From IMG/VR virus record IMGVR_UViG_3300048516_000008, positions 1 through 41,418 of that record: 41,418 bases of DNA, one strand, 5' to 3'. The translations under genes were made by a program, and so were the position numbers. Positions within the stretch are counted from its first letter, which is position 1. Every line of letters starts with the position of its first letter. Source of the stretch: a virus (lineage: Duplodnaviria > Caudoviricetes). This document shows positions 6,456 to 40,223 of this stretch, piece after piece. Under the pieces are notes generated by a model, which saw only the letters and a program-made list of their open reading frames with translations, ran no database searches and was not told the origin of the DNA.

Positions 6456-6590
6456 TGCCCACTGGGATTAATCCCAGTGTTGGGAATAGGGCGATCGCCC
6501 ACCGGAAAAATACTTTTGAGATTGTCCGGGATTCTCTCAAAAGTATGGTATCTTATAATAAGACGAACAAACAACGCAGGGCAAAAAGAA

Positions 6591-12050: not shown

Positions 12051-12072
12051 ATCGAAACCAGCAACTTAAAAT

Positions 12073-12282
12073 CAAGAAATATTATCAAGAAATATATTGT
12101 CAAGAAATATATTATCAAGAAATATATTATCAAGAAATATATTATCAAGAAATATATTATCAAGAAATATATTATCAAGAAATATATTATCAAGAAATAT
12201 TATCAAGAAATATTATCAAGAAATATTATCAAGAAATATTGTCAAGAAATATTGTCAAGAAATATAATATCAAGAAATATTA
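12073..12282. repeat. 15 tandem copies of CAAGAAATAT(AT)TAT (13/15-bp units)
   Basis: CAAGAA starts at 12073, 12086, 12101, 12116, 12131, 12146, 12161, 12176, 12191, 12204, 12217, 12230, 12243, 12256, 12271. Confidence 0.95.
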
Positions 12283-13894: not shown

Positions 13895-14746
13895 TTAATC
13901 TGTGAAGTGAACGCGGCAGCGGACAATGTTTGCCATCTGCACGGCGTTTTCGTGGGGAATAGCACCCTCAAAGTCGATAAACTCAATCACGTAGTCTTCA
14001 CGGAGTTTTAGCTTGTCTAAAGCGCGTTCTGAGAGGTAATCGCGGGTCAATTGGGAATCTTTGGTTAGATTGAAGTGCGATCGGATTTGCGCTGCGGTAA
14101 CTCCCCACATGGCTTGATAGAGTTGGTTGGTGCATTGGGCAATTATTTTTCCTAGTGGTAGATTCGTCTGAGTGTCGGGGCGATCGTACCAAGCTTTGAT
14201 TGAGTCCGTAAGTTCGCGGCGGGTAACTATTGTTGCCGATCGGATCTTTTTCCATCTTATTTGTAGCTCCTTTTCTGCCTGTTTAGCTTCCTCTGTGAGA
14301 GCCTTAAATTCGCCACTGAGAACTAATAGCAGCGTGTACCCCGCCCACGCTTCAAACTCTGAGCTAATCCAACTTGCTACCGAGATCGCGATTTGTGGAT
14401 GTCCGTATACCCCAGCATCGCCACCAATAGCGTCTCGTGTTTGTATTAGTAAACCTGATGTAATCCCAAAACCCAGGCAATCGTTGAAACCCGCATGGTT
14501 GTCCGGGGTGATTATAATCACCCCGGACGGGCTATAGGTTCCAGCCTCTAAAATTCTCAAGACAGCGTGAAAATAAGATAAGCGCTTCTTATCTTTCGTT
14601 AAGTAGTCTACCAAGCGCTTGCCACCTGCTTTGCACATCTGACTGAGGTTTACATACCCTTTGGGGATTGTTACGCCGTTAAGCACGGTCTCTGAAGATG
14701 TTTGCTCGATCGCCTTGCCATTGAAATTGTGTGGTATGATAGTCAT
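13895..14746 (-). CDS. KilA-N domain DNA-binding protein
   Basis: HNFNGKAI..GYVNLSQMCKAGGKRLVDYL..GVYGHPQIAISVASWISSEFEAW. Confidence 0.85.
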   Translation of the reverse strand: MTIIPHNFNGKAIEQTSSETVLNGVTIPKGYVNLSQMCKAGGKRLVDYLTKDKKRLSYFHAVLRILEAGTYSPSGVIIITPDNHAGFNDCLGFGITSGLLIQTRDAIGGDAGVYGHPQIAISVASWISSEFEAWAGYTLLLVLSGEFKALTEEAKQAEKELQIRWKKIRSATIVTRRELTDSIKAWYDRPDTQTNLPLGKIIAQCTNQLYQAMWGVTAAQIRSHFNLTKDSQLTRDYLSERALDKLKLREDYVIEFIDFEGAIPHENAVQMANIVRCRVHFTD

Positions 14747-14859: not shown

Positions 14860-15148
14860 AGGCGATCGCCCGCGCGATAATGGGGATATTAGGGCTATTT
14901 GACATCGAGTTTTTAAAATGGCTGCAATCGTTACTGTGTATAGGTTTAAGTCTGTCACAGAACGGTATATAGTATATAATATGACGTGTATCCTGTGACT
15001 TTCTCCCTTATTCTGTGACGGGGCGATCGGGCAAAAAAGCGCCGATCGCCCCAGCTAAAAATATTTTTTTATTTTTTGCGGATTTTGCAGAATGCTATGG
15101 TATAGTTAGATAGTTGGACAGAACCAAACAAACTAAGCGGATCTAAAC

Positions 15149-16786: not shown

Positions 16787-18209
16787 AGCCTTGCAGCTAC
16801 GAAAAATGGCAGAAATTGCCAGAGGGAAGCGACAAAAGTTTGCAGATTTTCCAGCGCCGCATCCTAAGCAAGCGCTGGCACTCAAAAGTAAAGCAGAAGT
16901 CCTGCTATTCGGAGGCGGCGCGGGGCCCGGAAAGACTACATGGTTACTTTGGGATGCTGCTAAACATATTAACAATGGCATTTACAGCGCCGTTATCTTG
17001 CGTAGGACATACCCAGAGATATGCAACGAGGGCGGCTTGTGGGATGAGTCTCAGAGATGGTATCCTTTGAAGGGCGCGACGGCTCATCAGACGCGGTTAG
17101 AGTGGACGTTTCCCAGCGGTGCTACAATCAGATTCTCGCATTTACAGCACGAAAAAAACGTGAATAATTGGCAGGGCGCACAATTACCCTATGTAGGCTT
17201 TGATGAAGTTACGCATTTTACTAAAAAACAGTTTTTTTACTTACTTTCTAGGTTGCGATCGCCCCACGGTTTTGAGCCAAAAATGAGGGCAACTTGCAAT
17301 CCGGATGCCGATAGTTGGGTAGCAGAGTTAGTCGATTGGTGGATAGGTGCAGACGGCTATGCAGACCCCAAAAAAGCGGGGAAAATAAGGTTTTTTATAG
17401 TAGTTGATGATATTATCCTTTGGGGTGACACAAAGCAGGAATTAGAAATAAAATATCCGGGTTGCTTGCCTAAAAGCTTTACATTTATTGGTGCGACGGT
17501 AGAAGATAACCCGACCTTGCTAAAAGCAGATCCGGGTTATCTGGCAAACTTACAAGCTCAGAACTCAGTTGATCGAGATCGGCTCTTATATGGCAACTGG
17601 CACGTTAAAAAAGCAGAGTCTATGCTATTCGATGTCGAGGCTGTTGATGCTTGCGCGATCGGCAACTATGCTTCACCTGTTCACAATCGCCGCTATCTGT
17701 GGGGTATAGACCCCAACTATGGCGGGGATGATTACTTCACGGCTCAAGCTTGGGATATCTCCACAGTTCCCTATACTTTGGCTTATGAGTACCACAAAAA
17801 CAAAACCCCAGTGTCAACATCAATCAGGGCTTTAATTCCATTTATAAGGCGATATCCCCCGCTAATCATCGGAGTGGAAATTAACTCAGGCGGGAAAGTC
17901 ATAGCCGAAAACTTAGCCGAAAAAATGCCTGATATCCGCATACAAGGAATACTATCAACTAAGTCGAGTAAAATTATCAACACTGACAGATTAAAGCTAT
18001 TTGTAGAGGAAAAATCAATAAATTACCCTAAAAATTGGGAAGGTATAGAAGAGTTTAAAAAGTTTTCAAAAGACGATCGCCGCGCCGTCTCAGGGCATGA
18101 TGACACAGTGATGGCGGCGGCTAGCGCTTTTGCGTGTTTGGATTTGGTACACGCTAGAGATCCGATCGCCCCTAGTGTTGGTGTACAATTTACCCACGCT
18201 ACATTTTAG
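16773..18209 (+). CDS. terL: Terminase large subunit
   Basis: GGGAGPGKT Walker A, ILRRT, VGFDE Walker B, ATCNP, nuclease WGIDP and HDDTVMA. Confidence 0.95.
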   Translation: MPLAKALQLRKMAEIARGKRQKFADFPAPHPKQALALKSKAEVLLFGGGAGPGKTTWLLWDAAKHINNGIYSAVILRRTYPEICNEGGLWDESQRWYPLKGATAHQTRLEWTFPSGATIRFSHLQHEKNVNNWQGAQLPYVGFDEVTHFTKKQFFYLLSRLRSPHGFEPKMRATCNPDADSWVAELVDWWIGADGYADPKKAGKIRFFIVVDDIILWGDTKQELEIKYPGCLPKSFTFIGATVEDNPTLLKADPGYLANLQAQNSVDRDRLLYGNWHVKKAESMLFDVEAVDACAIGNYASPVHNRRYLWGIDPNYGGDDYFTAQAWDISTVPYTLAYEYHKNKTPVSTSIRALIPFIRRYPPLIIGVEINSGGKVIAENLAEKMPDIRIQGILSTKSSKIINTDRLKLFVEEKSINYPKNWEGIEEFKKFSKDDRRAVSGHDDTVMAAASAFACLDLVHARDPIAPSVGVQFTHATF

Positions 18210-25508: not shown

Positions 25509-25528
25509 AGGGGCGATCGGGCGGGTTC

Positions 25529-26010
25529 TTTCACTACCGTTAGCCCCGTTCCTAGAAAGGCTTTCAGCTATTTGGATACGATTTTTCCCCTTCCGATGTT
25601 TTCTAGGTTTATATTCCCAGTGGCGAACCCAGAACCCGCTCCTAGTATAGCTTTGATACCTCTTGTGGCGTGAATCGTGGCGAACCCAAAAACCCGCGCG
25701 GGGCGGGTTGGGTGCAGGGCGATCGGCTCATCGTGAGTTTTACCAGCCTGGTTAAGCCAGAACCCGCTCCTAGCATGGCTTTGATGTCTCTCGTGACGTG
25801 ATTCGTGGTTAAGCCAAAAACCCGCGCGGGGCGGGTTAGTTGAAGGGGCGATCGGGCGGTTTGCGCTTTTTGGTGGGACGGGGAAGCTATACCCAGTAAG
25901 GTTTTTGGCTGTTTTGGCAAGTGTTTTGGTGGGACTGACTTGGGATGTCTTGGAACCCTTAGCGAGTAACCGTTTCGAGTCACAAGCCGCAGTATTTGGG
26001 ATGTCTTGAG
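25529..26010. repeat. Non-coding array of five 56-57-bp-period motif units
   Basis: Unit A is 47/53 identical to 26643-26695. Direct-repeat pairs: GTGGCGAACCC 25620/25677, TGGTTAAGCCA 25749/25806, TTTTGGTGGGAC 25868/25924, TTGGGATGTCTTG 25940/25996. Confidence 0.85.
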
Positions 26011-26079
26011 TTAACCAGTTGATACCGATCGCCCGATCGCCCGCAAAGATTAATCCCAGTGTTGGGAACCTACCCAAAC

Positions 26080-26101
26080 AAAAACCCGCACGGGGCGGGT
26101 T
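26080..26101 (-). terminator. Terminator hairpin AACCCGC-loop-GCGGGTT with U-tract on the minus strand (copies ~25688-25709 and 25816-25837)
   Basis: Located just downstream of the 26128 stop. Confidence 0.7.
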
Positions 26102-26127
26102 AGGTGCAGGGCGATCGGGCGGGCTAT

Positions 26128-26847
26128 TTATTTGGGTGTATTTTGTACCCGAATAATTCCTAAAGCAGCTTCATGCGTCACGTTTGCCGTTCTTAGTACG
26201 TCATAACAAGCCTCAGCACGGTTCAGCCTTTGAAGTAGCTCCCAGTCTGCCTGTTTGTATTCGTCTAAATAAGTCAGGGGAACATTTGCAGCCTTCTTTA
26301 ACTTGTTGACCTCGACACCCCACAAGACCGCGCTACAATCACCCCCAGCGTCTTGTTTTAGCCATTTAGTAAATAGCTCGTGAAACTGTTTTTTGTGCGC
26401 TAGCTTCTCTGCTAGGTATTGCTGACGCTCTTCTAGGGTTAATTCGATCCCTAATTGTTCATAGGCGATCGAGCGGATCGAATCTCCAAAACCCGCAGCT
26501 AATATTTGGGCAACTCCTATATTTTGGTTGACCGAGGATTCCCATGTGGCGATCGCTAGAAAATCTTCTAGCAGCATTAGTGCGACTTTTGCTGTAGCAC
26601 CAATCAATTTCGGCTTATTGACAATGGTTCCGGTAAATTTTCCTACCGTTCGCCCCGCTCCTAGAAAGACTTTCAGAGATTTGGATGCGATTTTTTTCCT
26701 TACGTTATTAGGCTCGTAATTGAGAATGACTTCGGCTGTGGGGTAAGTCAGGTATAAGTCCTTTGGAGAATTGACATCGATCGCGACTTCCAGATTTTCC
26801 CATCCGCTGTACTTGACGGTTTCTAATCGAACTGTTATATTAGGCAT
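26128..26847 (-). CDS. Antirepressor-like DNA-binding protein (cyanobacterial SKSLKxxLG type)
   Basis: NNVRKKIASKSLKVFLGAG motif; shares its promoter and leader with the KilA-N gene. Family assignment is an inference. Confidence 0.6.
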   Translation of the reverse strand: MPNITVRLETVKYSGWENLEVAIDVNSPKDLYLTYPTAEVILNYEPNNVRKKIASKSLKVFLGAGRTVGKFTGTIVNKPKLIGATAKVALMLLEDFLAIATWESSVNQNIGVAQILAAGFGDSIRSIAYEQLGIELTLEERQQYLAEKLAHKKQFHELFTKWLKQDAGGDCSAVLWGVEVNKLKKAANVPLTYLDEYKQADWELLQRLNRAEACYDVLRTANVTHEAALGIIRVQNTPK

Positions 26848-26956
26848 TAGTTGACCTGTAGTTGGGTTAGCTCATGCACCGGAAGTTTGCGCTTCGCGGT
26901 GTTTCCTATCTTATAGCACGTTTTTTCGGAATATCAGGAAATCTCAGAAATCTTTT
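26845..26956 (-). promoter_or_regulatory. Conserved promoter + structured leader (copy 3)
   Basis: TGCTATAAG, gcaccggaag..cttcgcggtg hairpin, ggtcaactaATG. Confidence 0.75.
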
Positions 26957-27338
26957 AGCGCGATCGCCCGATCGCCTTTTAACCCGCATTGCAGAGTTGT
27001 GAATCCCGCTCCTAGTATAGCTTCTAAGCATTTAGATAGCTGCTTTTGCATAGTTGTGAATCCCGATCGCCCGATCGCCCGATCGCGCGCTTCAAACCTC
27101 AGCCACCGACCCGTTTTGATATTGGGGCAAAAGGCATACGGTGTATAGGTTTGAGTGTGTCACAGAAGGGTATATATTATAAAATATATCGTTTGTCCTA
27201 TGACTTTTATCCCCATTCTGTGACGGCGGGTGACGGGCGATCGCCCGCAATAAAAAACCGCCGGATCAGCGGCGGCGGTATTCCTTTAGTCCAGTTCCTA
27301 AACCCTTGGGATCTTACGTCTCCGAGTTTACACTTATA

Positions 27339-27587
27339 TCATATCCTAATCTGCCAATAGTTTACAACTCTTTCTTTATTTACGAACTGGCTATCCACTA
27401 AAATTATGGTAACTCCGGTCTGAAGCATTCCCCGACCATAGATTCGTTTGTCAGCATAGCAATTACTGAGCACCGACCGATCGCATTCTGTAGTTTCGGG
27501 TGTGAAGCCAGCGCTTCTTAAGAAGTCCTCAAATTGGGTGATTTCTCCATGCCTCACGGCTATTTTTCCGATCGCGGAATCTGTCAT
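27339..27587 (-). CDS. Hypothetical protein
   Basis: 82-aa ORF followed by a GC hairpin plus U-tract (~27252-27281). Confidence 0.5.
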   Translation of the reverse strand: MTDSAIGKIAVRHGEITQFEDFLRSAGFTPETTECDRSVLSNCYADKRIYGRGMLQTGVTIILVDSQFVNKERVVNYWQIRI

Positions 27588-27682
27588 TTTTTAAAATTCT
27601 CAGTGTTGGGAATAGATAATTAATCTTCAAAACGTGTTAGAGTTTGAGGGTAAACACGATTGTGTTGTAGTTAAGCTCAGAG

Positions 27683-28186
27683 GTGGCATTGTCCGCCTCT
27701 TTCTCTATTATGTTTGATTCTGAGCAAATCAGGACGGAAATATCAGCAGCTTTAGCACCCGTGCGCGCTACGCTTGCGCCTAACGTATTGCTGAGAATAC
27801 ACCCTAACAAAGTGCAAGAGCTAGCGATCGCAGATAACGCTGGCGACATTTTGATCCTATTTCCGAGTGAGAGGACGATCGAGAACGATCGCACGTTTTC
27901 GGCTAATTTCCAGACGCGAATCCAGAAAGTATTAATAGTAATAAGCTTGCCAGAATACTATCAATCAACGGGGGCGGGGAAAGTAGCGGAAAGAGTAGAA
28001 TCGGCACTTGAAAACCTAAAAGTCACAAGCGCTTTATTTGATTTAACTTTTGATACCCGCCGCGAATATTTCCAACAAAAAAGATGGGTGCTAGAGCAAA
28101 GTTTTGATATAGTGGGAAGACAGCGAATTAATGAAATAGCAGGAACCAGTCCAGGAATATCAACAATGAGGATTGACATTTTATGA
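27683..28186 (+). CDS. Putative tail completion/terminator protein
   Basis: Overlaps the sheath start (ATGA); size and position fit. True start may be ATG 27710. Confidence 0.6.
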   Translation: MALSASFSIMFDSEQIRTEISAALAPVRATLAPNVLLRIHPNKVQELAIADNAGDILILFPSERTIENDRTFSANFQTRIQKVLIVISLPEYYQSTGAGKVAERVESALENLKVTSALFDLTFDTRREYFQQKRWVLEQSFDIVGRQRINEIAGTSPGISTMRIDIL

Positions 28187-29400
28187 CTAGCATTTTAATA
28201 GAGCAGGGAGTCAGGCTACCGAGATCCCCCTGGGATGTGATTGCGGTAGTTGGGAACGCTGCAAAGGGTGACGGCAACCCTACATTAATCACCTCTTTAA
28301 CCAGCGCTATCGCGAAGTATGGGGAGCGTTTATCATTATCTACCGCGTCGGGTAAAGGGCGCGAATCTTACGGTTTAGTTGATGCGATCGAGACGATTTT
28401 CAAATATGTCCAAGTACCTATTATCGCAGTCAATAGCACGCCGTCGGTTGCAGTTGCAGCGGTAGCAGCTAAAAGCTACACATTTAATGCCTCTGGCATA
28501 ATCAAGTTAGAACACCCTAACGTAGTAGCACCTATCATCGTAACGAACGTGGCAGCCGATATAACATACATATCCCCTACACATTACACGATCGCCCCGC
28601 TTACAGGGCTAATAACCCGCACGGCTGCAAGTACAATCCCGGCGCTTGGTACTGTTCGCGTCACCTACTCAGTCGCAAATTATGACACGATCAACTTAAT
28701 AAGTGCGATCGGGATTGTTGCAGCCGTTAACGGGCGCGTACCTACCCTGATTGTGACCACTGGTGTTGAAATCACCGCAGAGATTGCCACTGCTTTGAAT
28801 CAGAAGGCGATCGCCTTAAGCGCGATCGCGGTGTACACTCAGCCGGGCGTAAGTGCTACTGCCGCGATCCCATTACTCAATTCTGCTAACGCCGCTGCGG
28901 TATTCCCTATCCGCACTAGCGATCGCGGGGTTGAGGGTGCGGGTGTTCATTTGGTCGCAGCCGTGGCACTGTTAGACTATTGGGACAACCCTGATGGAAA
29001 ACTACTAAAAGAGTCCGCTGTTGCCCTAACTCTTGCAGACTCAGCACTATTACAGGCTAAAGGCGTAACGTGGGGAAGTGATCGAATCATGACCTCTATT
29101 ATGACAAATGGCTTGCCGTTTAATATGGCTAGACTGAGGGCAAAAGCTCAATTCTTGGCTAACAAAGTCGCTTTTGACTGGAGACTAAAACCATTTGATT
29201 TAGTACATTTAGAGGCTATTGCTCAAGCTATTCGCGACGCTTTGAATCGTGAACCTGAAGCCTCGCTGCTACCTTATAGTGTAGTCAATTTCAGCAGCGA
29301 AAAGTCGGATACAGCCGTTCGCCGTCTGGTTTATGATGTTCTCTTGAAAGGTGATAATCAGGGCGATCGCATTGCAGAAATAACAATCTTTGTGAGTTAG
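28183..29400 (+). CDS. Contractile tail sheath protein
   Basis: IEQGVR..VIAVVGNA..P.LITS..A...YG, YWDNPDGK, RIAEITI; precedes a tube-sized ORF. Confidence 0.8.
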   Translation: MTSILIEQGVRLPRSPWDVIAVVGNAAKGDGNPTLITSLTSAIAKYGERLSLSTASGKGRESYGLVDAIETIFKYVQVPIIAVNSTPSVAVAAVAAKSYTFNASGIIKLEHPNVVAPIIVTNVAADITYISPTHYTIAPLTGLITRTAASTIPALGTVRVTYSVANYDTINLISAIGIVAAVNGRVPTLIVTTGVEITAEIATALNQKAIALSAIAVYTQPGVSATAAIPLLNSANAAAVFPIRTSDRGVEGAGVHLVAAVALLDYWDNPDGKLLKESAVALTLADSALLQAKGVTWGSDRIMTSIMTNGLPFNMARLRAKAQFLANKVAFDWRLKPFDLVHLEAIAQAIRDALNREPEASLLPYSVVNFSSEKSDTAVRRLVYDVLLKGDNQGDRIAEITIFVS

Positions 29401-29404
29401 AAAT

Positions 29405-29881
29405 ATGCTAAAAGTTGCGTTTGTTGATGTTGACGGGGTAATACTGGTTAACGGTGAGGTCAAGACAATTGACTTGCCAGAATTTACCAGGAATTATGAT
29501 ACTGATATGGTAGTCGGGACTGACTTTACAAAACCAGAGGCGCGATCAATTCAGGCGGCCGAATTAACCATGTCATTAAAGGATCACAAGAGGAATCCTA
29601 CTTTTTTAAAGTTTGTTGAAAAGGCCTTTAATACGAAGTTAATCGTAACTTTAATGGTCTTGAATGTCGATATGACATCGCCTACTGTAGCGACTAGCGA
29701 TGGCGAGTTTTACTCAGGTTACGTTAGCAGACCAGGGCGTACTGTCAGCCCAGATAAAGCTGATGACGGTACTATTAAATTACAAGTGAGCGACGCTTGG
29801 CGAACAGAGAATGGGGTTGTGGTTTGGAGACTTCCGACAGGTTCCTCAGACACAATAGGAGTCGAATTAGTCTATGGTTAA
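29405..29881 (+). CDS. Tail tube protein
   Basis: 158 aa directly after the sheath; GEVKTIDLPEF, beta-rich. Confidence 0.7.
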   Translation: MLKVAFVDVDGVILVNGEVKTIDLPEFTRNYDTDMVVGTDFTKPEARSIQAAELTMSLKDHKRNPTFLKFVEKAFNTKLIVTLMVLNVDMTSPTVATSDGEFYSGYVSRPGRTVSPDKADDGTIKLQVSDAWRTENGVVVWRLPTGSSDTIGVELVYG

Positions 29882-29915
29882 TCCCCGCTATTCCCAGTGT
29901 TGGGAATAGTAAAAC

Positions 29916-29941
29916 AAAACCCGATCGCGCGATCGGGTTTT
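29916..29941. terminator. Bidirectional terminator built from HIP1-like sequence
   Basis: AAAACCCGATCG-CG-CGATCGGGTTTT between converging genes. Confidence 0.75.
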
Positions 29942-29951
29942 AAATTGTCTT

Positions 29952-30320
29952 TTAGCCTTCGCTTTCGGCAGACGCAATCGCTAGTATTAAAGCACTCAGC
30001 AAACTGTCGATCTCATCCCCGTCTTCTATGGTGTGATACCGAGCCTCTAATTTGTTGATCGCCGTCTGTAATTTTGATGTAACATTACCCTGCGAGAATA
30101 GAGTATAAACCACTTCAGCCCTATCTATCGGAGTAAATGGTTTATTCGGATTCGCGACAGCAGCCGCGATAAAATGGTCGGGATTCCTCAGACAATCCTC
30201 AACCCAAAGCCCAAACAGATTGATAAACCGAGAAATACGGGCGATCGAGCCGTTATTTTCCTCAAATTCGGTAATCGCCTTAGTTAGCTCAGGGCTCGTG
30301 AAATCGGTTAAACTAATCAT
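29952..30320 (-). CDS. Hypothetical protein
   Basis: Start moved to ATG 30320, downstream of a TGCTATACTATAATAAC promoter of the early type. Confidence 0.6.
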   Translation of the reverse strand: MISLTDFTSPELTKAITEFEENNGSIARISRFINLFGLWVEDCLRNPDHFIAAAVANPNKPFTPIDRAEVVYTLFSQGNVTSKLQTAINKLEARYHTIEDGDEIDSLLSALILAIASAESEG

Positions 30321-30385
30321 AATTTCCGGTTGTTTGGTGTTATTATAGTATAGCATAGTAATAACATAATCGGAGAAAAAAATAA

Positions 30386-30721
30386 ATGAGTTTTCAAGGA
30401 TCGGAAATAGTGTATCCACCGTTACCATGCGTTACCAGAGATTGTAGCATTTGCGGTTTTATGTTCTCAAACAATGACAGCCGGACGGCATACTGGAATT
30501 GGTGCGATGAGTGCTTTCTGAATGCACCTTTAAATGTACGCCACAAGGCCTGCACGGCTGAAGAGTTAGCAGCGAGTCTATCTCTGCAAAAGAAGACAAG
30601 GGAATCGCTAAAACAGCGGGCGATCAACAAAAAAAACCGAGTAGGGAAAACTACCAATTCTAAAGCTAAGAAAAAAGAAGACGACGATCTAGATATGGAC
30701 TTAATCTACAACCAATATTAG
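30386..30721 (+). CDS. Small Zn-finger protein
   Basis: CSIC..WCDEC, basic C-terminus. Confidence 0.55.
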   Translation: MSFQGSEIVYPPLPCVTRDCSICGFMFSNNDSRTAYWNWCDECFLNAPLNVRHKACTAEELAASLSLQKKTRESLKQRAINKKNRVGKTTNSKAKKKEDDDLDMDLIYNQY

Positions 30722-30756
30722 GCTAAGATATTAGGGAACCTTAGCGCGATCGCCCC

Positions 30757-31383
30757 ATGTCACTAGCTAGCCTAAAACTCCCAAAGGGTGCATTGATTCT
30801 CAACTACGACAAACCAGCGCAACATTACTATGATTATGAATTAGCCCCGCGGGATGTATTATCAAAACTTGCTTTTTTGGGTGCTATTTCAACTGTAGAA
30901 ATAGACGGCAAAATATTGCCCACAACGGCGGAAAATTTACAACGCGCGGGGATAGGACGCAAATCATTAGGCGACGGGGTAGAGATGACCGGGTTAATGG
31001 GATGCGTCCTACTCTGTGATGGCGATCGGTTTAAAATATTAGATAACTCATTAGACATTGTAAATTCTCAGCACTTCACTTTTGATGAAATAGATATCAC
31101 TTTTGAAAACAGCGATAACGATATTTTCCAGAATACTTTATGGGCAAAAAATGTAGAAGAGTCCGGGCGCTTGTTAGCTCACGTCAAAGATATTACCAGT
31201 TATTGTAAGATTAACGGACAGCCTGTATTGAATCAACATTTTGAGCTACCAGTTACCGAGGGTGGGATAGGCTGGCTATTGGCTGCAATTTTGCTTAAGG
31301 TAAGCATTAATCAGGGAAAGTTCGAGTTATCGATCCCAGAACCATTATTATCCTCTCCAAATGGTGCGGTTACGATTTCTTAG
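30757..31383 (+). CDS. Tail assembly chaperone (G-like); -1 frameshift product extends to 31487
   Basis: Upstream of the tape measure gene; in-frame G GGA AAG at 31314-31320; -1 frame open until TAA 31485-31487. Confidence 0.75.
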   Translation: MSLASLKLPKGALILNYDKPAQHYYDYELAPRDVLSKLAFLGAISTVEIDGKILPTTAENLQRAGIGRKSLGDGVEMTGLMGCVLLCDGDRFKILDNSLDIVNSQHFTFDEIDITFENSDNDIFQNTLWAKNVEESGRLLAHVKDITSYCKINGQPVLNQHFELPVTEGGIGWLLAAILLKVSINQGKFELSIPEPLLSSPNGAVTIS

Positions 31384-31509
31384 CGCAAATATCCCCGTTA
31401 CCTCGGAAGACTCAAGAATTATTTATACTTGAGGCGATCGCACTGATGGAAGATGAAGCAAACGAACTAAGACGACGGCAGAAATAATTCCCAATATTGG
31501 GATTAATTA

Positions 31510-33117
31510 ATGGGCATCATAAAGTTAGGAGTACAGGCGGATCTGACTGATAACGTAACACCCGGATTACAAAAATTAGCAAGTTCTGGGGCTGATGAAT
31601 TAAAGCGGATTAGCGATGCTCAAAGAGCGATGAATGAGGTCGTAGGAGGCGCGCAAACGTACATTACAGAGCCGTTAGTTGCGCTCGGTGCTGTGGCGTT
31701 TGATGCCTCAACAAAATTCGAGACAAGCATCACAAGTATCAATAAAATCCTCGATTTGACCCCCGACAAACTGGCAGCAATGAAAGGGGAAATATTAGAT
31801 TTATCTAATACTTTAAAAGTAGTTGATCCTAATAAAATCGCCGCGCTTGCTGCTGCTGCTGCACAATACGGGATAGCTTCTGATGAGGTTATAAAGTTCA
31901 CAGAAACAGTCGGAAAGATGGCGTTTGCCTTTGATTTGCCAGCCGATGAAGCGGGGGAAAGTGCGGCGAAAATCAGAAATATTTTCAAACTTTCGGTCGA
32001 TGAAATGAACGATTTGGGAGGAACGATAAATGAGTTGTCAAACAATATGGCAGCCAGCGCAAAAGAAATAACTAAAGTGTTACCGCGTGTTTCTGGTTTA
32101 GCGGCACAAGCCGGGTTAACCTATCGAGAAACTGCGGCACTGTCCGGCGCTATTCTTTCACTGGGAATTGTACCCGCTAAGGCAGGAACTGGGCTTAATT
32201 TTCTAATTGGATCAATGAATGCTGCAACTGTTGGATCTGCTAGATTTAAACGCGGGATCGCAATGGTCGGTTATTCGGCTAGAGAGATGGAGGAAGATAT
32301 CAGGTCGCGCGGGTCGGCAGCTATTACGGACTTTTTGACTAAGATAAACTCGCTTGATGCTACTACCCGATCGCGCGCTATTGCCTTAATAGGTGGTAGA
32401 GAATACTCAGACGATTTAGGGATGATGTCTACTAATGTTGAGTTACTGCAACGCGCTTTAAACCTTGCTAATGACGAACAGAGGACAGCAACATCATTGC
32501 AGCGTGAATTTGACATCCAAACAAATACAACAGCATCAGAAGTTGCGCGGATGGGCGTTAGTATGAATAAGCTGGCGATCGTGGTTGGTGATGCCTTGCT
32601 ACCACCAATTAACGCATTACTGGATAAGATGATCCCGCTAATCCAAAAAACAGCGGACTGGGCTAAAGAAAATCCCAAAGTTGTGAAGAGTATTGTATAC
32701 GTAGGGGCGGCGCTTGCTGCGATCGCCCCTACAGTCCTATTCTTTTCAGCTATAACTGGCATTGTGAGCGCTGCGGGGTTAGCTTTCTCTGTGTTTGGTG
32801 GCGGCGCTACAACAGCGCTTTTAGCCGTAGCTGCGGCGGGCGCGATCGCGGTGGCAACAATCCGACCGTTGCGTGAAGGTTTTATGAGTGCGATCGGCGT
32901 ACTGCCATCTATGCCGACGGCTAGCTCTTCTAATTTATTTGGTTCCTCTGGCAGTGGCGGTAGCCAACAGCAAGCGATTACCTATTCCCCTACTGTGAAT
33001 GTTAGCGGTACAGCCTCCAAAGATGACATCATAGACACCCTCAGAGAGCGTCAACGCGACTTTGAATCGTTCATCAAGGAAACACTATCAAAGTACGGTC
33101 GCACGTCCTACGGCTGA
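31510..33117 (+). CDS. Tail tape measure protein (TP901-type core)
   Basis: FETSITSINK..INELSNNMAASAKEI..AGTGL..VGDALLP..WAKENP; Ala-rich hydrophobic C-terminal part. Confidence 0.9.
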   Translation: MGIIKLGVQADLTDNVTPGLQKLASSGADELKRISDAQRAMNEVVGGAQTYITEPLVALGAVAFDASTKFETSITSINKILDLTPDKLAAMKGEILDLSNTLKVVDPNKIAALAAAAAQYGIASDEVIKFTETVGKMAFAFDLPADEAGESAAKIRNIFKLSVDEMNDLGGTINELSNNMAASAKEITKVLPRVSGLAAQAGLTYRETAALSGAILSLGIVPAKAGTGLNFLIGSMNAATVGSARFKRGIAMVGYSAREMEEDIRSRGSAAITDFLTKINSLDATTRSRAIALIGGREYSDDLGMMSTNVELLQRALNLANDEQRTATSLQREFDIQTNTTASEVARMGVSMNKLAIVVGDALLPPINALLDKMIPLIQKTADWAKENPKVVKSIVYVGAALAAIAPTVLFFSAITGIVSAAGLAFSVFGGGATTALLAVAAAGAIAVATIRPLREGFMSAIGVLPSMPTASSSNLFGSSGSGGSQQQAITYSPTVNVSGTASKDDIIDTLRERQRDFESFIKETLSKYGRTSYG

Positions 33118-33124
33118 TTTTAGA

Positions 33125-34115
33125 GCAATTACGGGAATCCCCGTAATTACTTTAAGGGTGTCGGTTGAATCTACCCCCTTAAAGTAACTATCGGGATGCC
33201 GATAGTTACCTTTAGGCAATTACGCAAATTTGCGTAATTGCTTTAAAGGTGTTTGTTAGTAACAAACACCTTAAAGTAACTATGCAGATTCGCATAGTTA
33301 CTTTAAGGCAATTATGGGAATCCCCATAATTGCTTGACCTGCTACCGGAAAATCGGTAGCAGCCTCAAAGTTAGGTGCGGGTTTTTCATTGGGCGCGATC
33401 GGGGGATGAGTTCGCTAATAACGAAGTCATGAAGTGAACCCCATACAACCCGCCCGGCGTAATAGTTTCAGCTTTTTTTCGGTTTTTCTTGTGAACTCTT
33501 TAAACGCGATCGCCCGTGGTATCGGTAGTAGCGATGTCATCGCCTGAAAGCCTTACTGTGTTTGGTTCATCGGTTAAACCGATGATGCTGTCATTAGCAA
33601 TGACCCCCTTAAAGTAATTACGGGAATCCCCGTAGTTACTTGACCTGATGACGGAAAATCGTCACCAGGTCAACCGAACGGTTCGCAATCCTTGCACAGT
33701 ATAGGTTTTGTCTATTCCTGTCTCTATTTCCCGAACCCCATACAACCCGCCGTTATCGTGATCCCGATAACGGCTTTAAGGGTGTCATCAGTAATGACCC
33801 CCTTACAGTAACTACCGGAATCCCGGTAGTTACTTTAGCTTAAGCCCGATCGCCCGATAGTGTCGGTAGTAGCGATGCAACACCATGCAACCCGCCCGGC
33901 GCAAAGGTTATATCGTATTTTTCCCCGGTCTCTGCAACACCCCGTTATCGTGATCCCGATAACGGGGTGTCATCAGCAATGACCCCCTTAAAGTAACTAT
34001 TGGATTCCCAATAGTTACCTCAGCTTAAGCGCGATCGGTCTATCGGAATCCCGATAGACTCCCTAAGCGCGATCGCCCCATAAAAAAGATGGATTCGTTA
34101 TTAACGAATCCATCT
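33125..34115. repeat. Non-coding array of ~23 variant palindromes plus three 57-bp-period direct-repeat units
   Basis: About 13 units of the type G(C/T)AA(C/T)T-[5-4-5 palindrome]-A(A/G)TT(A/G)C or with other arms, and about 10 GGTGTC..GACCCC-like units. No ORF of 60 aa or more inside. Confidence 0.9.
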
Positions 34116-34146
34116 CCTAAGCCACAGTTAATCCCAGTATTGGGAA

Positions 34147-34941
34147 TTACATCAAATCTCGAACAGTCTCAACCATCGACTCTACCCATTTTGTGTGTTG
34201 GTAGCTGGTATTGTCTTCCTTGCGTCCGGTGGCGATCGTATTGCAGGAATACGGTTTGCCTTTCTCTGTGGGGAAATAGGCGGGTTCTGTTTTGCCTTTG
34301 TTAGGGTTCTTTATTTGGTAGCCATTAGCCGTCAGCAGCGCGTTAATTACCCGTGCTGAAGTGCCAAGCCGATCGCCGATCGCCGTGGGAGTTAGCAGTA
34401 TTTCTGCGATCGGGGTGTTGGCTGCGAGTAGCGAGTGCGCGGCATTGATACTTTGCTTTAGTTCGGGATGATATCGTTGGACTTCATTTAGCAGCATCCC
34501 ATCAACTAGCGGCGCTGGTACGCTAGACATCGCCGATCGCAGTAAGTCTAAATGCGCTGCGGTTAATGCGGGTTTCTCAGATTTGGGCGCGATCGAGACC
34601 GTCCCTTCAGTCATCAGGGTTTTAATTTGTTGAGATACCCAAACTCGGAATTTGACATTGCACCACGCCGCGAAGTCGATCGCCACTTCCTCAATTGCCC
34701 ACGTCCCCCGCTGTTCGTTAGTACCTTTAGACTCATTTGTCTCGATAATTTGGTCTACGGGAATCCCCGCAGACTTCCCAAACTCAGTCAGGAACTCGAT
34801 TGTAGTTGCTAATCGTAGGTAATCATTAACCCGCTTACCCGTCGCCTTAGCCATATCGGTTAGGCTAACCCACACCCGATCGCCCCGCATCTCAAACCGA
34901 ATATTCTTGCCAGCAAAGTCCAAAACTGTTAAACTAGACAT
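34147..34941 (-). CDS. KilA-N domain antirepressor-like protein
   Basis: FAGKNIRF..VWVSLTDMAKATGKRVNDYLRL..GIPV..GTWAIEEVAIDFAAWCNVKFRVWV; C-terminal LTPTAIG..SARVINALL..GYQ winged-helix. Confidence 0.9.
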   Translation of the reverse strand: MSSLTVLDFAGKNIRFEMRGDRVWVSLTDMAKATGKRVNDYLRLATTIEFLTEFGKSAGIPVDQIIETNESKGTNEQRGTWAIEEVAIDFAAWCNVKFRVWVSQQIKTLMTEGTVSIAPKSEKPALTAAHLDLLRSAMSSVPAPLVDGMLLNEVQRYHPELKQSINAAHSLLAANTPIAEILLTPTAIGDRLGTSARVINALLTANGYQIKNPNKGKTEPAYFPTEKGKPYSCNTIATGRKEDNTSYQHTKWVESMVETVRDLM

Positions 34942-35047
34942 AACTTACCTTGGTTGATTTATCCTTCAAATATATTATACCATAGGAAAACACAAAACCC
35001 GCAAACTTTTAAAAGAATTTGCGGGTTTTTTATTGGGCGCGATCGCC

Positions 35048-35067
35048 TGTGGATAACGTTATCCACA
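35048..35067. promoter_or_regulatory. Inverted pair of consensus DnaA boxes
   Basis: TGTGGATAA-CG-TTATCCACA; both halves match TTATCCACA perfectly. Confidence 0.6.
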
Positions 35068-35094
35068 GTTAATCCCACTGTTGGGAATTAAGCG

Positions 35095-35460
35095 CTAAGC
35101 ACGTTTGGGTTTAGGTTTGCCGACTTTGCGTTTGCCTGCGATCGCGGCGTACCCTGTGACTCCGATCGCCATTACCCGAATCCCAAAATTCATAAATCGT
35201 CTGCGAGTTTTGATATCGCTCCAAAGCCATTTACCGATAGATCCTTTATGAACCCAATCGTGAGCGATGCGACTAAGCGGTACACAGTCTCGGAGATATT
35301 TCTCGCTCCCCAGATTCTTGTACGTCAAATGATGCGCGTCATCAGCCGATAACCAGGGCAATAAAGAACAGCGATTGCCTGTCATTGTTCGGAAATTAGA
35401 GGATTTTTCTCGCCATTGAGGCGATCGAATATAAAATGAATACTCAGGGCTAAATCCCAT
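35095..35460 (-). CDS. HNH-like endonuclease
   Basis: YIRSPQWR..RC..AHHLTYKNLGSE..DCVPLSRIAHDWVH. Confidence 0.7.
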   Translation of the reverse strand: MGFSPEYSFYIRSPQWREKSSNFRTMTGNRCSLLPWLSADDAHHLTYKNLGSEKYLRDCVPLSRIAHDWVHKGSIGKWLWSDIKTRRRFMNFGIRVMAIGVTGYAAIAGKRKVGKPKPKRA

Positions 35461-35471
35461 TTTAGATACCT

Positions 35472-35978
35472 CTATTTCGTTGTTTTGAGCATAGCCTGAG
35501 CTTTTTTGGCTGCGGGCGATCGCTTGATTGTTGTCTTGATTGCTGAACTCGGAGGTATCAAAAACCTGGGATCTGCCTCCGAGACGGGTTCCCAGTTTGG
35601 GGTAATTGTGATGACAGAGACCGGGTGCGACAAATCAAAATATTTTGATCCAATTTGATTGACTTTTTTGATATTGTCACCGGACAAAATACCAGCCTGT
35701 ACTAAGGCATCAAGCCACGATCCCTCAGAATTGTCGAGATCGGCGTTTGTTCTCAGACACCCGTGAAATTCGATCTCTATTTTTACCGCACTTAGGGGGA
35801 AATGTCGGGTTATCATTGCAGGCAAAACCCCGATCGCGGCAATTAAAGCTTGCTTTGCTGTTTTTTGCCATGTTGAATAACCCTCTGAGTAATAAGCCCT
35901 ACCCTCTGCAATTCGTGGTCGTTGTTTGGGGATAACTTTTCCCCTAAGCGCAAGAACGATCGGACGTGAATTTGTCAT
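35472..35978 (-). CDS. rusA: RusA-family Holliday junction resolvase
   Basis: PKQRPR..Y..W, ADLDN, LDALVQAGILSGDN. Confidence 0.8.
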   Translation of the reverse strand: MTNSRPIVLALRGKVIPKQRPRIAEGRAYYSEGYSTWQKTAKQALIAAIGVLPAMITRHFPLSAVKIEIEFHGCLRTNADLDNSEGSWLDALVQAGILSGDNIKKVNQIGSKYFDLSHPVSVITITPNWEPVSEADPRFLIPPSSAIKTTIKRSPAAKKAQAMLKTTK

Positions 35979-35981
35979 GTT

Positions 35982-36266
35982 TTAACCTTTGCAGAGTTCG
36001 AGATCCGCCGCGTCTACCCGCACTACCAGAAAATTTGCTACCGATTTTTTAGAGAATTTAACAACAGTTTGCGTATCTGGTTTGCCTTTGCGATATCGCA
36101 TACAAGGGGAATCTAAATGAGTCACGAGACCGATATCTTCAGCCTCAAAATAATACGGTTGCGTGTGGAAATTCAGCACTTCGATTCTGTCCACATTAGG
36201 TCTGAGTTGCACAATGTCGCCACATTTTACAGAGTCCGTTGTCGCTTTGATTTTTGTCATAATCAC
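35982..36266 (-). CDS. Hypothetical protein
   Basis: 94-aa ORF co-oriented with and 3 bp from rusA. Confidence 0.55.
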   Translation of the reverse strand: MIMTKIKATTDSVKCGDIVQLRPNVDRIEVLNFHTQPYYFEAEDIGLVTHLDSPCMRYRKGKPDTQTVVKFSKKSVANFLVVRVDAADLELCKG

Positions 36267-36909
36267 GATCGCGGGGAATTAGAGAGTTTAGCAGGTGGTT
36301 TTAGCTCAGAGAGGAAGCGGATCGCCCCTATGTCTTTGCTCGGTCATTTAATTGTGGTTTTGATGTAGCAGCGCAAGGCTTAGCCTCTATTTCCATCCCG
36401 ATTTACACTGCTATTTGGCAATCTTGCGATCCCGTTGGGCTATGTGTTTACTATGCCATACCATCCTAGGGGATGTCAAGGGGTCTAGCAAAGTATTTTT
36501 AAATCTGTTTTGACATTGGGGTAAACCCGTTGCACTGTATAGGTTCTAGCCTGTCACAGAATGTCATATATTATAAAATATATCGTTTGTGCTGTGACTT
36601 TCCCCTATTCCGTGACGGGGCGATCGGCTGAGCATTGCGCGGATTTGCGTAATGGTCTTAAGGGCGATCGGCTGAGCATTACTCAGATCCGAGTAACGGA
36701 CTTAAGCGCGATCGCCCTCAGCCACCGACCCGTTTTGATATTGGGGTAAAACCGTTACAGCGTATAGGTTTAATACTGTCATAGAACGTCATATATATTA
36801 TAAAATAGTAGTATGTCCTGTGACTTTCTCCCATTGTGTGACGGCGGGTGACGGGGCGATCGGCGCGATATAATGAGGATTAATTATTCCCAACACTGGG
36901 ATCTAAAGT

Positions 36910-37848
36910 ATGCCAAGTTTAATCAGACTCAACTATCCCAGATTGATAGAGGATATTACCAAGCTTAGCTATAGCGACCCGCTAACCGGAGGATCGCCGG
37001 ATATCGAGTTGAGCGTCATCGACCGAGGCGTAATCCCGATCGCGCCTAAATCTACTATCGAGTTAGAGATAGGGCGGGTAGATTCGGTATATAGGCTTAG
37101 AGCGGGTTTATTTGAAGTCGATCGGATCAGCCTGCAAAATAATCTCAGAACGATCGCAGCGACCGGGTTGCCATTATCCGATCCTCAGTTGAAGTTAAAA
37201 CGGGATGCCGACTATGCAGAATATAAATTAATAGACATACTAGAAGAGATAGCAGAGCGCTATCGGTTATCAGTGTTTACCCTTGATTTACCTGATATAG
37301 AATTTTCACAAATAGCGCAAGTAAATCAGTCCGACCTTGATTTTCTAAACGGGTTAGCAAACAGGATCGGCGCTGTTTTCAAGATAGAGAATAGGGAGTT
37401 AATTTTTACATTGCTTATAGATTTAGAAACCCGATCGCCCTTATTCGCTATTAATTCAACACAATTTATCAATTACTCCGAAACAATTTTAGGCACGGAG
37501 AATTATCAATATATTGATTATGAGGTGGTGTTATTTGGAGATAGGGAATTTATCAGAGTTGAGGATAATCGGGTGTCTAATGGTAAAATAATCACTTATA
37601 GAGGTGCGGGTGTAGCTGCTGACGATGAGAACTTATTGATAATCGCAGCGCGCGAACAATTGCGACAAATTAACGGTGCCAACTATTTATTCGACTTTGA
37701 AATTCTGGGAGACTGGAGAATGATAGCAGGCAGTGTTTTTACGTTAGACGGGCGATCGGCTTTTGTCGATCGCGTTGTTCACACGATCGACACTCAAGGT
37801 ACACTCGATTGGGTTGCAGCGCTTAGCTGTCGCTACTTGCCCCCGTAA
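36910..37848 (+). CDS. Baseplate hub / late control D-like protein
   Basis: LSYSD..DIEL, GLFEVDRI, IAQVNQSDLDFLNGLA..G..FKI, GD..MIAG, V.RV.H. Confidence 0.85.
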   Translation: MPSLIRLNYPRLIEDITKLSYSDPLTGGSPDIELSVIDRGVIPIAPKSTIELEIGRVDSVYRLRAGLFEVDRISLQNNLRTIAATGLPLSDPQLKLKRDADYAEYKLIDILEEIAERYRLSVFTLDLPDIEFSQIAQVNQSDLDFLNGLANRIGAVFKIENRELIFTLLIDLETRSPLFAINSTQFINYSETILGTENYQYIDYEVVLFGDREFIRVEDNRVSNGKIITYRGAGVAADDENLLIIAAREQLRQINGANYLFDFEILGDWRMIAGSVFTLDGRSAFVDRVVHTIDTQGTLDWVAALSCRYLPP

Positions 37849-38104
37849 CTTCAGCCGGGCCCAAAAAAGCATCAACTAACTTTCTGGCTTGTCGCGGGTT
37901 GGCTCTGATTTTTTCCAAGACTTGCAGAGCTAACCCAAACCGCCTAACAGCATCAAAGACTTGCCTGAGTCCTAAAGAAGTATTTACTACCGTTTTGCCG
38001 TCTACTAATCGACTCCCCATCATTTCTGCCAACTCTAAATCACTTTTGCTAATAGTGCAGTTAACAGCAATCAGTCGGTCTTTTTCGGCTTTAAATTTTC
38101 CCAT
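37823..38104 (-). CDS. Small hypothetical protein, possibly ribbon-helix-helix
   Basis: VNCTISKSDLELAE..NTSLGLR pattern. Confidence 0.4.
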   Translation of the reverse strand: MGKFKAEKDRLIAVNCTISKSDLELAEMMGSRLVDGKTVVNTSLGLRQVFDAVRRFGLALQVLEKIRANPRQARKLVDAFLGPAEVTGASSDS

Positions 38105-38151
38105 GACTTTATTTTTTTAGTTTGTTCTTACACTATACCACAATACAAGCG

Positions 38152-38415
38152 ATGATGATGCAATTCGGGAAAATAAATGAGCCTATTTCAGCTTTCCAAG
38201 CTCAGCGTCAGATATTAACGCTTTGTTTAAATTCCCATCACTGGGAAATTCCCTTTAACTGGGATTTTGGGCGCGATCGCGACGCTGTAGATCCGGTAGA
38301 ACAAATTACCGCTATGATTGAGAGATACCTCGCATTCTCAATCGACAGTGTAGAGGTTGAGGGCGATCGGGTTAGTGTTTATTTAAAAGGTAAACGGATC
38401 GATGTCACAATCTGA
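38152..38415 (+). CDS. Baseplate wedge protein (gp25/gpW-like)
   Basis: EIPFNWDFG..IERY..IDSVEV; overlaps the baseplate J start. Confidence 0.6.
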   Translation: MMMQFGKINEPISAFQAQRQILTLCLNSHHWEIPFNWDFGRDRDAVDPVEQITAMIERYLAFSIDSVEVEGDRVSVYLKGKRIDVTI

Positions 38416-39100
38416 TTTAGACTTAGCTGCATTGCGAAACCGGATAGCTACAAAATGGCTAGAATTATCTGGACAGCCTTTGACGATCGGATCGTTAGAG
38501 TGGGCTTATAGAGAGGTTTTAGTATTAATTGCATCATGGGCAAAAATTGACACAGAGAATGCAATTAACGTCGCATACGGCAAGTATAAAACCGAGATAT
38601 ACAAACTCCCCTATGGCGCAGGAAATAAAGAGGCAATTATTGCTTTATCACGGGCATATACTGATGTCGCGGATGTGAATGTTGCTAACACGAACACTCC
38701 GATGAGTATACAGGTATTTCTATTAGCTAAAACGGGGACACCAAGCGCGGGTCAAATTGCCGGGTTACAGGCTTATTTGAATAGCCCCACAGTTAAAAAT
38801 ATCTGTGATACTTACACCGTATCCGCAGCAACTCAGGTCACATGGAATTTTGACGCAACTATTAGCGTAAGTGGCGACCCGATCGCCCTACGATCTCTGG
38901 CAATAACAGCAGTTAGTAATTACGCAAGCAATCAACTAAAGTTAGGTGCAACTATACGACCTAGCGATTTAACAGCAGCTATTCGCTCGATCGCGGGTAT
39001 TGATGACGTGGCAATTTCAGCACCTATATCTAATTTAATCACAGCAGCAAATCAATTCCCCAAAATAGGAACGGTCACGATCGCTACAACAATTATTTGA
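38402..39100 (+). CDS. Baseplate J-like protein
   Basis: GAGNKEA..VADVNV..GTPS..YLN..CDTYTV, LG..I..S.L...I..I.G. Confidence 0.85.
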   Translation: MSQSDLDLAALRNRIATKWLELSGQPLTIGSLEWAYREVLVLIASWAKIDTENAINVAYGKYKTEIYKLPYGAGNKEAIIALSRAYTDVADVNVANTNTPMSIQVFLLAKTGTPSAGQIAGLQAYLNSPTVKNICDTYTVSAATQVTWNFDATISVSGDPIALRSLAITAVSNYASNQLKLGATIRPSDLTAAIRSIAGIDDVAISAPISNLITAANQFPKIGTVTIATTII

Positions 39101-39143
39101 GGATTAATCCCAGTGTTGGGATTAATCTTTGCGGGCGATCGGC

Positions 39144-39839
39144 TTAGTCAAAAAACCCGCGAATTGTTGCCTCTAATTCTGGGGTGCGATCGTACACATT
39201 GACTTGATAGCGTCCGTGTTGAGTTTGCCCTAAAGGTTCGTGAGAAGTCCTCACCCACTTACCCAATTTTGCATCTTCACCGGGTTTTAAAGAATAGCCA
39301 AGATCCCGCGCTAAAACGGCTGCTATGACGGGTTTAGCTTGACTTCCTGGTAGAGCGTTGTTTGCTCCCAATTCCTCTGCTAAGCGCTGCTCAAACGCTG
39401 CTTTGATTATTGGGTTAGTGATACTTGGCAACAGTTTTGTAGCTTCTATTAATACCTCAAAAGATGTCGGCAACTGTCGGGGCGGTTCTGGCGTGGGCGC
39501 GGTTAGTTGGCTGATAACGTGTTTTACCCCGATCGCCCCAAACGTTCGAGCCAACTGCTTAGCCATCGGGGCGGCTGCTTTTGATTCATAAGCGAAGTAT
39601 TCGATCGCTAGCCAAACAGCCTGCGGGGGAAAGCCATTCTCTACCAAGTCAGCAGGCTTAAACCCATACTCTGTAAGGGTTTGACCTAATTTTGCCGACT
39701 TGAAGTCAGCACCTCGGATGATGCTAGTATCATCAACACTACAGCAGCGCGCGACACCACGGATGCTCAAATTTCCGTTAGGCATTGCCTGATCTCGAAT
39801 GAAGCTCAAAAATTCTTGCTCAGTGTGTATAATGGTCAT
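39144..39839 (-). CDS. Antirepressor-like DNA-binding protein (cyanobacterial SIRGVAR type)
   Basis: LSIRGVARCCSVD HTH-like, AIEYFAYE, AIGVK, C-terminal KLGKWVR..VNVY. Start moved to ATG 39839. Confidence 0.65.
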   Translation of the reverse strand: MTIIHTEQEFLSFIRDQAMPNGNLSIRGVARCCSVDDTSIIRGADFKSAKLGQTLTEYGFKPADLVENGFPPQAVWLAIEYFAYESKAAAPMAKQLARTFGAIGVKHVISQLTAPTPEPPRQLPTSFEVLIEATKLLPSITNPIIKAAFEQRLAEELGANNALPGSQAKPVIAAVLARDLGYSLKPGEDAKLGKWVRTSHEPLGQTQHGRYQVNVYDRTPELEATIRGFFD

Positions 39840-40020
39840 TATTAGTTGTCTCTTGTTTGGGTAACTGCGATCGCGTATTGCCAAATTCCCGATCGCCTAA
39901 TAATATTATAACATACTAATATTAAAAACCCGCACGTTCTTAAAAGAATTTGCGGGTTTATTCTTGAGGATTAATCCCAATGTTGGGATTAATCTTTGAG
40001 GGCGATCGGGTTAATCGAAA

Positions 40021-40163
40021 GCACCAGTTTTAAACCTTTGTGCAGTATAGGTTTCAGCCAGTTTTATAAAGGCAAGGCACCACATCGAATCGACAAAGTG
40101 TGCAGCATTTAAAGCCATACCTAGCAAGGCTTTGACCTGATTTTTATCGACGCAAGTGTGCAG
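40021..40163. repeat. Two non-coding variants of the motif found inside the 39144-39839 gene
   Basis: GCACCA at 40021/40077 and AAGTGTGCAG at 40096/40154, each flanking AAA(C/G)C..G(G/C)TTT. Confidence 0.8.
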
Positions 40164-40223
40164 GGCGATCGGGCTAGCCAAAAAATGCTAAGCTAAAAGT
40201 ATAGAAAAATAGCAATATGAACT

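Follow-up and report, generated by a model that had tools for sequence, protein, structure and literature searches.

The DNA analysed here, referred to as the window, is the complete virus record IMGVR_UViG_3300048516_000008 (Duplodnaviria; Caudoviricetes), which is 41,418 bases in length, about 63% complete, and contains terminase, capsid, tape-measure and baseplate genes. The sequence GCGATCGC, which we take to be the cyanobacterial HIP1 repeat, occurs in it 56 times versus 0.4 expected, and because of this overrepresentation the host of the phage is likely to be a cyanobacterium. Between positions 25529 and 40163 lie three minus-strand genes for predicted DNA-binding proteins, hereafter called readers, each of which holds a candidate binding site inside its own coding sequence, together with four intergenic arrays of short units resembling such sites. 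The original prediction, made from the letters of the sequence, described a symmetric motif within each of the three genes; all three motifs are found at the places given, but those of genes 1 and 3 are direct repeats (two boxes) around a pseudo-palindrome. The reader genes and their in-gene sites are the following.

26128..26847, minus strand: gene 1 (P0001, 239 amino acids), predicted winged-helix-like N-domain
26636..26700, minus strand: in-gene two-box site of gene 1, 56 base pairs (bp); boxes 26636-26644 and 26692-26700, agreeing at only 7/9
34147..34941, minus strand: gene 2 (P0002, 264 amino acids), KilA-N domain and Ant-like C-domain
34753..34774, no strand: in-gene palindrome of gene 2, encoding S-A-G-I-P-V-D
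39144..39839, minus strand: gene 3 (P0003, 231 amino acids), N-domain homologous to the BstA N-domain, C-domain different
39646..39711, minus strand: in-gene two-box site of gene 3, 57 bp; boxes 39646-39654 and 39703-39711, agreeing at 9/9; encodes G-A-D-F ... P-A-D-L
13895..14746, minus strand: fourth reader gene, KilA-N, outside the span of the original prediction; perfect 28-bp in-gene palindrome at 14501-14528

Of the four readers, gene 2 and that at 13895-14746 belong to the KilA-N family (PF04383), with 65 and 37.2 bits against a cut-off of 23.8; gene 2 matches at E 6.6e-18 and, over residues 96-263, also phrog_130. A palindrome scan of the window found no array adjoining the fourth gene. 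Gene 1 has no Pfam or PHROG family, NCBIfam yielded no match, and a Foldseek search of the PDB with the models of genes 1 and 3 gave none at E<=0.001. A wider fold search with both models returned middling Z only: the matches of gene 1 are modest (Z 4.7-7.7), and the N-domain of DdrC was matched by gene 1 and gene 3 at about 6, a middling score. A match of the gene-3 profile to IcmE/DotG was rejected as a short-repeat coincidence, and PADLOC PDC-S22 matches were set aside, PDC-S22 itself being a candidate.

The four arrays are also present where they had been described. Between 33120 and 34120, 18 palindromes score at least 8, whereas 200 dinucleotide shuffles gave a mean of 0.2 and at most 2. 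The other arrays contain exact 9-mer direct repeats at a spacing of 56-58 bp: four in 25520-26020 (shuffle mean 0.01) and one each in 26980-27075 and 40010-40170 (0.00). Local shuffles were used for these repeats instead of a whole-window tally of 55-59 bp repeats, which is uninformative because tandem repeats occupy every spacing. Short tandem repeats (5-mer, 14-15-mer) are seen at 11674-11800 and 12070-12230, in a gene-poor stretch. The units are of three types: type A is the KilA-N palindrome, type B the Bro-N palindrome, and type C consists of two boxes 56-58 bp apart around a pseudo-palindromic, bend-like middle. They are arranged as follows, the unit borders within the mixed array being set by reading.

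25529..25600, minus strand: decayed copy of the gene 1 two-box site, 82% identical to 26638-26709, with an in-frame stop (...KIVSK*LKAFLG...)
25619..25691, minus strand: two-box unit, 57 bp, sister family; boxes 9/9; best in-gene match 40/53, to open reading frame (ORF) 6008-6724 of related phage G402
25747..25819, minus strand: two-box unit, 57 bp, with a different box; boxes 9/9; middle 26/29 to G402 ORF 62555-63304
25865..25937, minus strand: two-box unit, 56 bp; boxes 9/9; parent gene not found, best score 34 versus shuffled 28-32
25938..26010, minus strand: two-box unit, 56 bp, sister family; boxes 9/9; 55/72 to an in-gene stretch of L005
26990..27068, minus strand: two-box unit, 57 bp, sister-gene site; 53/69 to G402 ORF 62555-63304, boxes included
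33125..34115, no strand: mixed array: about 13 palindromes of KilA-N type, about 10 of Bro-N type, several of them decayed, and two-box units at 33433 and 33876
40018..40082, minus strand: two-box unit, 56 bp, non-self gene-3 allele (G-A type); boxes 8/9; box identical to that of the L009 gene
40096..40162, minus strand: two-box unit, 58 bp, non-self gene-3 allele (A-H type); boxes 9/9; x-H alleles occur in P0006, P0025, L010 and L012

The array beside the KilA-N gene (33125-34115) therefore also contains Bro-N-type and two-box units. The type B units match palindromes inside Bro-N (PF02498) genes of relatives, with 22/27 bases to the L008 gene, and no Bro-N gene was found in the contig, the record of which is about 63% complete.

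The proposal that selection acts on these motifs as DNA is borne out within the genes themselves. In 17/17 gene-3 relatives the two boxes share the wobble base of the variable codon (7.0 expected), in 16/17 they share the next one (9.8 expected), and the base just outside the box agrees in 1/17. The same dipeptide is encoded by both boxes in 44 of 64 proteins of the gene-3 family (7.2 expected; 64 of 72 homologues were parsed and 8 dropped) and in 50 of 67 further ones (67 of 148 parsed, the 81 dropped being C-domain-only matches or indels). In the KilA-N genes the palindrome has its centre at the same place in 18/19.

In addition, the in-gene site covaries with the predicted recognition helix of the protein which it encodes, as self-recognition predicts. 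In the gene-3 family residue 37 lies at the start of this helix, and the first box codon follows it: D goes with A in 19/21, H with G in 25/30 and N with V or L in 6/9, and the rule is kept in 43/54 further proteins, kin among them. The second box codon is not predicted by residue 37 and follows residues 38, 39 and 42 instead. When pairs were taken independently on a tree built without the tested columns, 13.5 of 15 gene-3 pairs changed in the same direction and none in the opposite one (p 2e-4). Among positions 38-71, those coupled to residue 37 are 44 and 63 (0.56 and 0.59 bits) and, weakly, 45 and 64; that is, box bases 7 and 26 codons away are coupled, and the 17 positions between the boxes (46-62) are not. 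Because these intervening codons are uncoupled, a linked block travelling whole was ruled out as the source of the covariation, and contacts within the protein may play a part but would not explain the wobble identity. In the KilA-N family, residue 39 being N, A or G goes with an outer palindrome codon T-A, M or I-L, respectively, in 23/24, 16/16 and 18/23 (5 of 74 rows were dropped, and a misparsed row, P0147, was counted as a single outlier). Judged from these sequence patterns, the readers very probably bind a DNA site inside their own coding sequence.

Two expectations had been attached to the arrays, namely that the units have counterparts inside homologous genes, either as other alleles or as sister families of related phages, and that related phages gain and lose units, and the comparisons agree with both. 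Units were searched against 375 ORFs with shuffled controls. The type A units encode T-G-I-P-V, M-G-I-P-I, I-G-I-P-I, M-Q-I-R-I and T-Q-I-C-V, all of which occur among 69 KilA-N homologues, and the first three are among the four commonest alleles. In phage G403 the syntenic KilA-N gene has M-Q-I-R-I in place of A-G-I-P-V, and this allele corresponds to the window unit at 33276 (17/18 bases); G403 is without an array there. The units flanking gene 3 bear boxes of other gene-3 alleles, and most of those flanking gene 1 correspond to sister families (55/72, 53/69, 40/53). The flanking copies had been described as variants of the motif of the neighbouring gene; this is true of some, but many derive from sister families.

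Since the units read in frame as peptide alleles of real genes, and since in gene-1-like families the first box overlaps predicted helix codons, they might be silent donor cassettes which diversify the in-gene motif by recombination, as had been offered as an alternative. This is, however, very unlikely. A donor should hold the whole variable determinant and flanking homology, whereas the units of the KilA-N and gene-3 kinds do not include the covarying helix codons, so that conversion would uncouple a tightly coupled helix and site; the homology beyond the site amounts to a few bases, and several units would cause a frameshift. Moreover, Bro-N units are present, yet no Bro-N gene is found in the incomplete record. 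Among the assembled contigs of the source run, to which this comparison is confined, the KilA-N gene has no letter differences and no in-gene switching to array alleles is seen.

As for turnover, the units of relatives differ in kind and place. Run X2 skips 33642-33846, run X3 is without the array and the gene, and run X1 has joints which skip a complete gene-1 cassette or the KilA-N gene. If the proteins bind their in-gene sites, the arrays could still be neutral debris of cassettes swapped at hotspots, of which symmetric pieces survive longest or mark breakpoints. Entire cassettes are indeed absent in variants or relatives, the arrays are patchy across relatives, the unit at 25529-25600 is the gene 1 site in decayed form, and a gene-3-type unit of G402 adjoins a 74-amino-acid gene remnant, as debris would. 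This explanation is nevertheless considered unlikely, because the units are site-sized, with boxes at 9/9 and a spacing of 56-58 bp kept while their middles have diverged to an identity of about 75% and acquired stops or frameshifts, and because many array palindromes are more perfect than the in-gene copies and have new symmetric flanks.

Other repeated elements were noticed around these genes. A family of 20-26 bp palindromes bounds accessory cassettes (6460, 26052, 27596, 29890, 31487, 34130, 35071, 36882, 39106 and 39973), and relatives and variants lack entire cassettes between its copies. In G403, positions 16861-18200 contain a more extensive bank of two-box units, whose boxes are different and which has no homologue of gene 3 in its vicinity. 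The window also repeats a module about 95 bp long, in which the bend-like motif of the two-box units precedes an inverted repeat centred on an AT-rich core, at 27113, 36507, 36732, 14906-15030, 19740, 13713 and 780-883; the module occurs in G403 too and is possibly a promoter or origin module. Furthermore, the same long, terminator-like hairpin lies upstream of the KilA-N gene (34994-35029) and of gene 3 (39926-39959), with three copies in G403.

A link to a known system, the BstA/aba system of abortive infection and cognate DNA self-immunity, is given by the N-domain of gene 3, which aligns with that of BstA in hhalign (97.9%, E 4.4e-13, 99 columns) with the helix in register, and the gene-3 profile retrieved true BstA genes. 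The PADLOC BstA model covers only residues 24-120 of gene 3 (E 0.009), the BstA C-terminal domain not being matched, and gene 3 is therefore not classed as bstA. No solved BstA structure was found by sequence. According to Owen et al. 2021 (PMC8585504), BstA has a KilA-N-like N-terminal domain at residues 32-147, and aba is a 63-bp element which overlaps the gene start, requires both terminal repeats and acts as high-copy DNA in an allele-specific manner; the main text leaves open the mechanism by which BstA is suppressed and does not mention IHF. On the sequence printed there (PMC8585504), the aba repeats are 56 bp apart.

From 91 bstA loci collected, 66 and 63 were kept after removing duplicates or loci without an anchor. 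Exact repeats of at least 6 bases in the 66 distinct regions number 17 at 56 bp and 28 at 57 bp, and 0-7 at other spacings between 30 and 90. An IHF-like motif, defined by a consensus which we take to be that of IHF, lies between the repeats in 35/63 loci versus 3.8 expected, mostly at two offsets. The boxes differ with the helix: CACCAC occurs in 9/10 D-H-T/S loci versus 3/53 others, GGCC in 7/8 A-R-S loci and GAGAAC-like boxes in 14/15 Q-R-L loci, and the H-T boxes of BstA and of the gene-3 family are reverse complements of each other. Most proteobacterial prophage bstA genes (L119-L207) have at their start an aba-like two-box element that includes an IHF-like motif. Among 401 cyanobacterial genomes the BstA model matched in 20. 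In one cyanobacterial locus, L076, the BstA C-domain is fused to a KilA-N reader whose in-gene palindrome closely resembles the window unit at 33308, which spells M-G-I-P-I, and in L209, L211, L214 and L215 it is combined with readers which have in-gene 57-bp repeats in the gene-3 layout. In the bstA genes of L209 and L211 the in-gene box coincides with the HIP1 repeat, and half-sites would accordingly be abundant in the host chromosome.

The phage therefore resembles BstA/aba (PMC8585504) in that gene 3 has a homologous N-terminal DNA-binding domain and the site overlaps its own gene as direct repeats 56-57 bp apart and is selected as DNA; the pairs, which covary between alleles, may be allele-specific as well. 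Like aba, the two-box elements end in direct repeats which are spaced by about 56 bp and overlap the cognate gene. Differences from that description (PMC8585504) are that aba spans the start codon whereas the phage sites lie inside the gene, that the phage's proteins carry other C-domains, and that BTP1 has one cognate aba whereas the phage has banks of many foreign sites and several reader families. Moreover, BstA/aba is a tested system, while the function of the phage arrays is predicted.

On balance the arrays are read as banks of the sites of other alleles and families, and somewhat probably they act, in the manner of aba, as immunity keys, or else as decoys, directed at defence proteins of the BstA type which belong to competing prophages or to the host. 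The idea of a key-ring had been put forward in the original prediction and is strengthened because BstA/aba is a tested precedent with the same geometry; of that interpretation, DNA-level selection, in-gene counterparts and turnover of units are supported by the sequence, helix covariation is as its idea of self-recognition predicts, and donor cassettes are not supported. The mechanism may be pictured in five steps. The sequence shows in-gene sites which are kept symmetric as DNA while changing with residues of the predicted helix-turn-helix. The helix would read its site as a palindrome in KilA-N and Bro-N proteins, and as two boxes joined by an IHF/HU-type bend in the gene-3/BstA type. A site a few codons from the helix would keep lock and key together through recombination, and specificities could therefore diversify fast. 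The units are seen in the sequence to be site-sized scraps of such genes, in which the frame is lost and the symmetry, or the box identity and spacing, is kept. During lytic replication, the copied units would then engage cognate foreign readers and suppress them, a step modelled on the suppression of BstA by high-copy aba DNA.

The same readers may instead use their sites as auto-operators or docking sites, in the manner of antirepressors or partition proteins, and the arrays would then recruit proteins of this kind encoded by co-resident elements, or titrate them, without involving abortive infection. The C-domains of the phage's own readers match antirepressor or regulator families, the fold neighbours of the models include the DNA-binding domains of pSK1 Par and RacA (Z 4.2-4.7), and two units of the arrays have the predicted site of the phage's own KilA-N allele. 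On the other hand, no paired gene-3 box lies outside gene 3 in the contig (of a record about 63% complete), the only tested member of the gene-3/BstA reader type is a defence protein, and the fast turnover of alleles would fit conflict better than housekeeping, so that this role is rated as unlikely. That the units act as RNA, as hairpin guides or sponges, is extremely unlikely. Palindromic units can fold, and one 395-base contig from an RNA library touches the array, but RNA run X14 (0.05 share, one short contig) gave no evidence of array expression, no Rfam match was found and promoter and terminator counts are at chance level. The two-box units, furthermore, are direct repeats at a fixed DNA spacing, with an IHF-like motif in the BstA case, and aba works as DNA (PMC8585504).

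Several points weigh against the reading of the arrays as keys. About half of the short units score no better than shuffled controls (375 ORFs), and therefore their parents are assigned by pattern only. Extra intergenic gene-3-type units occur in only 3/27 related loci, many of which are short; in one of the three the unit is a self or hybrid unit, and the G402 unit has the gene remnant beside it. Tree-independent KilA-N pairs agree in direction and are insufficient in number, with 4-6 per test (p 0.06-0.25). The analysis of helix-site coupling covers the gene-3 and KilA-N families. Profile comparisons of gene 1 with BstA and with gene 3 gave no match, and the agreement between its boxes is 7/9. 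Among the four readers of the phage itself, none matches the BstA C-domain of the PADLOC model. The bstA counts include kin, 15/63 sharing one helix, the BstA locus L203 (helix D-D-T) departs from the gene-3 rule, and the KilA-N/BstA fusion L089 has no palindrome at the threshold used. Finally, a single chromosomal aba copy is described as giving no immunity (PMC8585504), and therefore one incoming genome may not suffice.

Sites inside the gene of the binding protein are familiar from other systems. Such sites are the lambda ori in O, the P22 pac in the small terminase gene and parS in parB, in which, as here, site and reader travel together; to our knowledge, none of them has banks of foreign alleles or a two-residue helix code. 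Racr RNA anti-CRISPRs are solitary repeat mimics carried by phages, which act as RNA on Cas complexes. The phage is similar to them in keeping nucleic-acid mimics of an element of the defence system itself, but its units are DNA sites for predicted helix-turn-helix readers. Literature searches on KilA-N and Bro-N gave no account of a helix-coupled in-gene palindrome or of orphan banks, and searches for the arrangement as a whole, whose coverage left out most subscription papers, found no description and only the BstA papers as precedent. What appears to be new is the multi-family key-ring, the proposed working mode being already known from aba.

A wider and more tentative proposal is that a large group of DNA-binding domains of phages and prophages (BstA-N, KilA-N, Bro-N) are self-addressed locks, each gene encoding its own key, with a short helix-to-base code shared from cyanophage proteins to proteobacterial BstA, and that phages gather the keys of other genes in modular anti-defence arrays of DNA. 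If it is true, aba would work through the BstA helix-turn-helix on two boxes looped by IHF. The comparison thereby offers a testable model for the open mechanism of aba, with helix-read boxes, an IHF-type bend and predictable switches of specificity. From the helix-to-box rules, orthogonal protein-DNA pairs could also be derived, in families. Should the arrays act as keys, they would constitute a DNA-only, multi-specific anti-defence module which gene-centred searches have missed, and the very common "antirepressor-like" KilA-N and Bro-N genes would gain a role.

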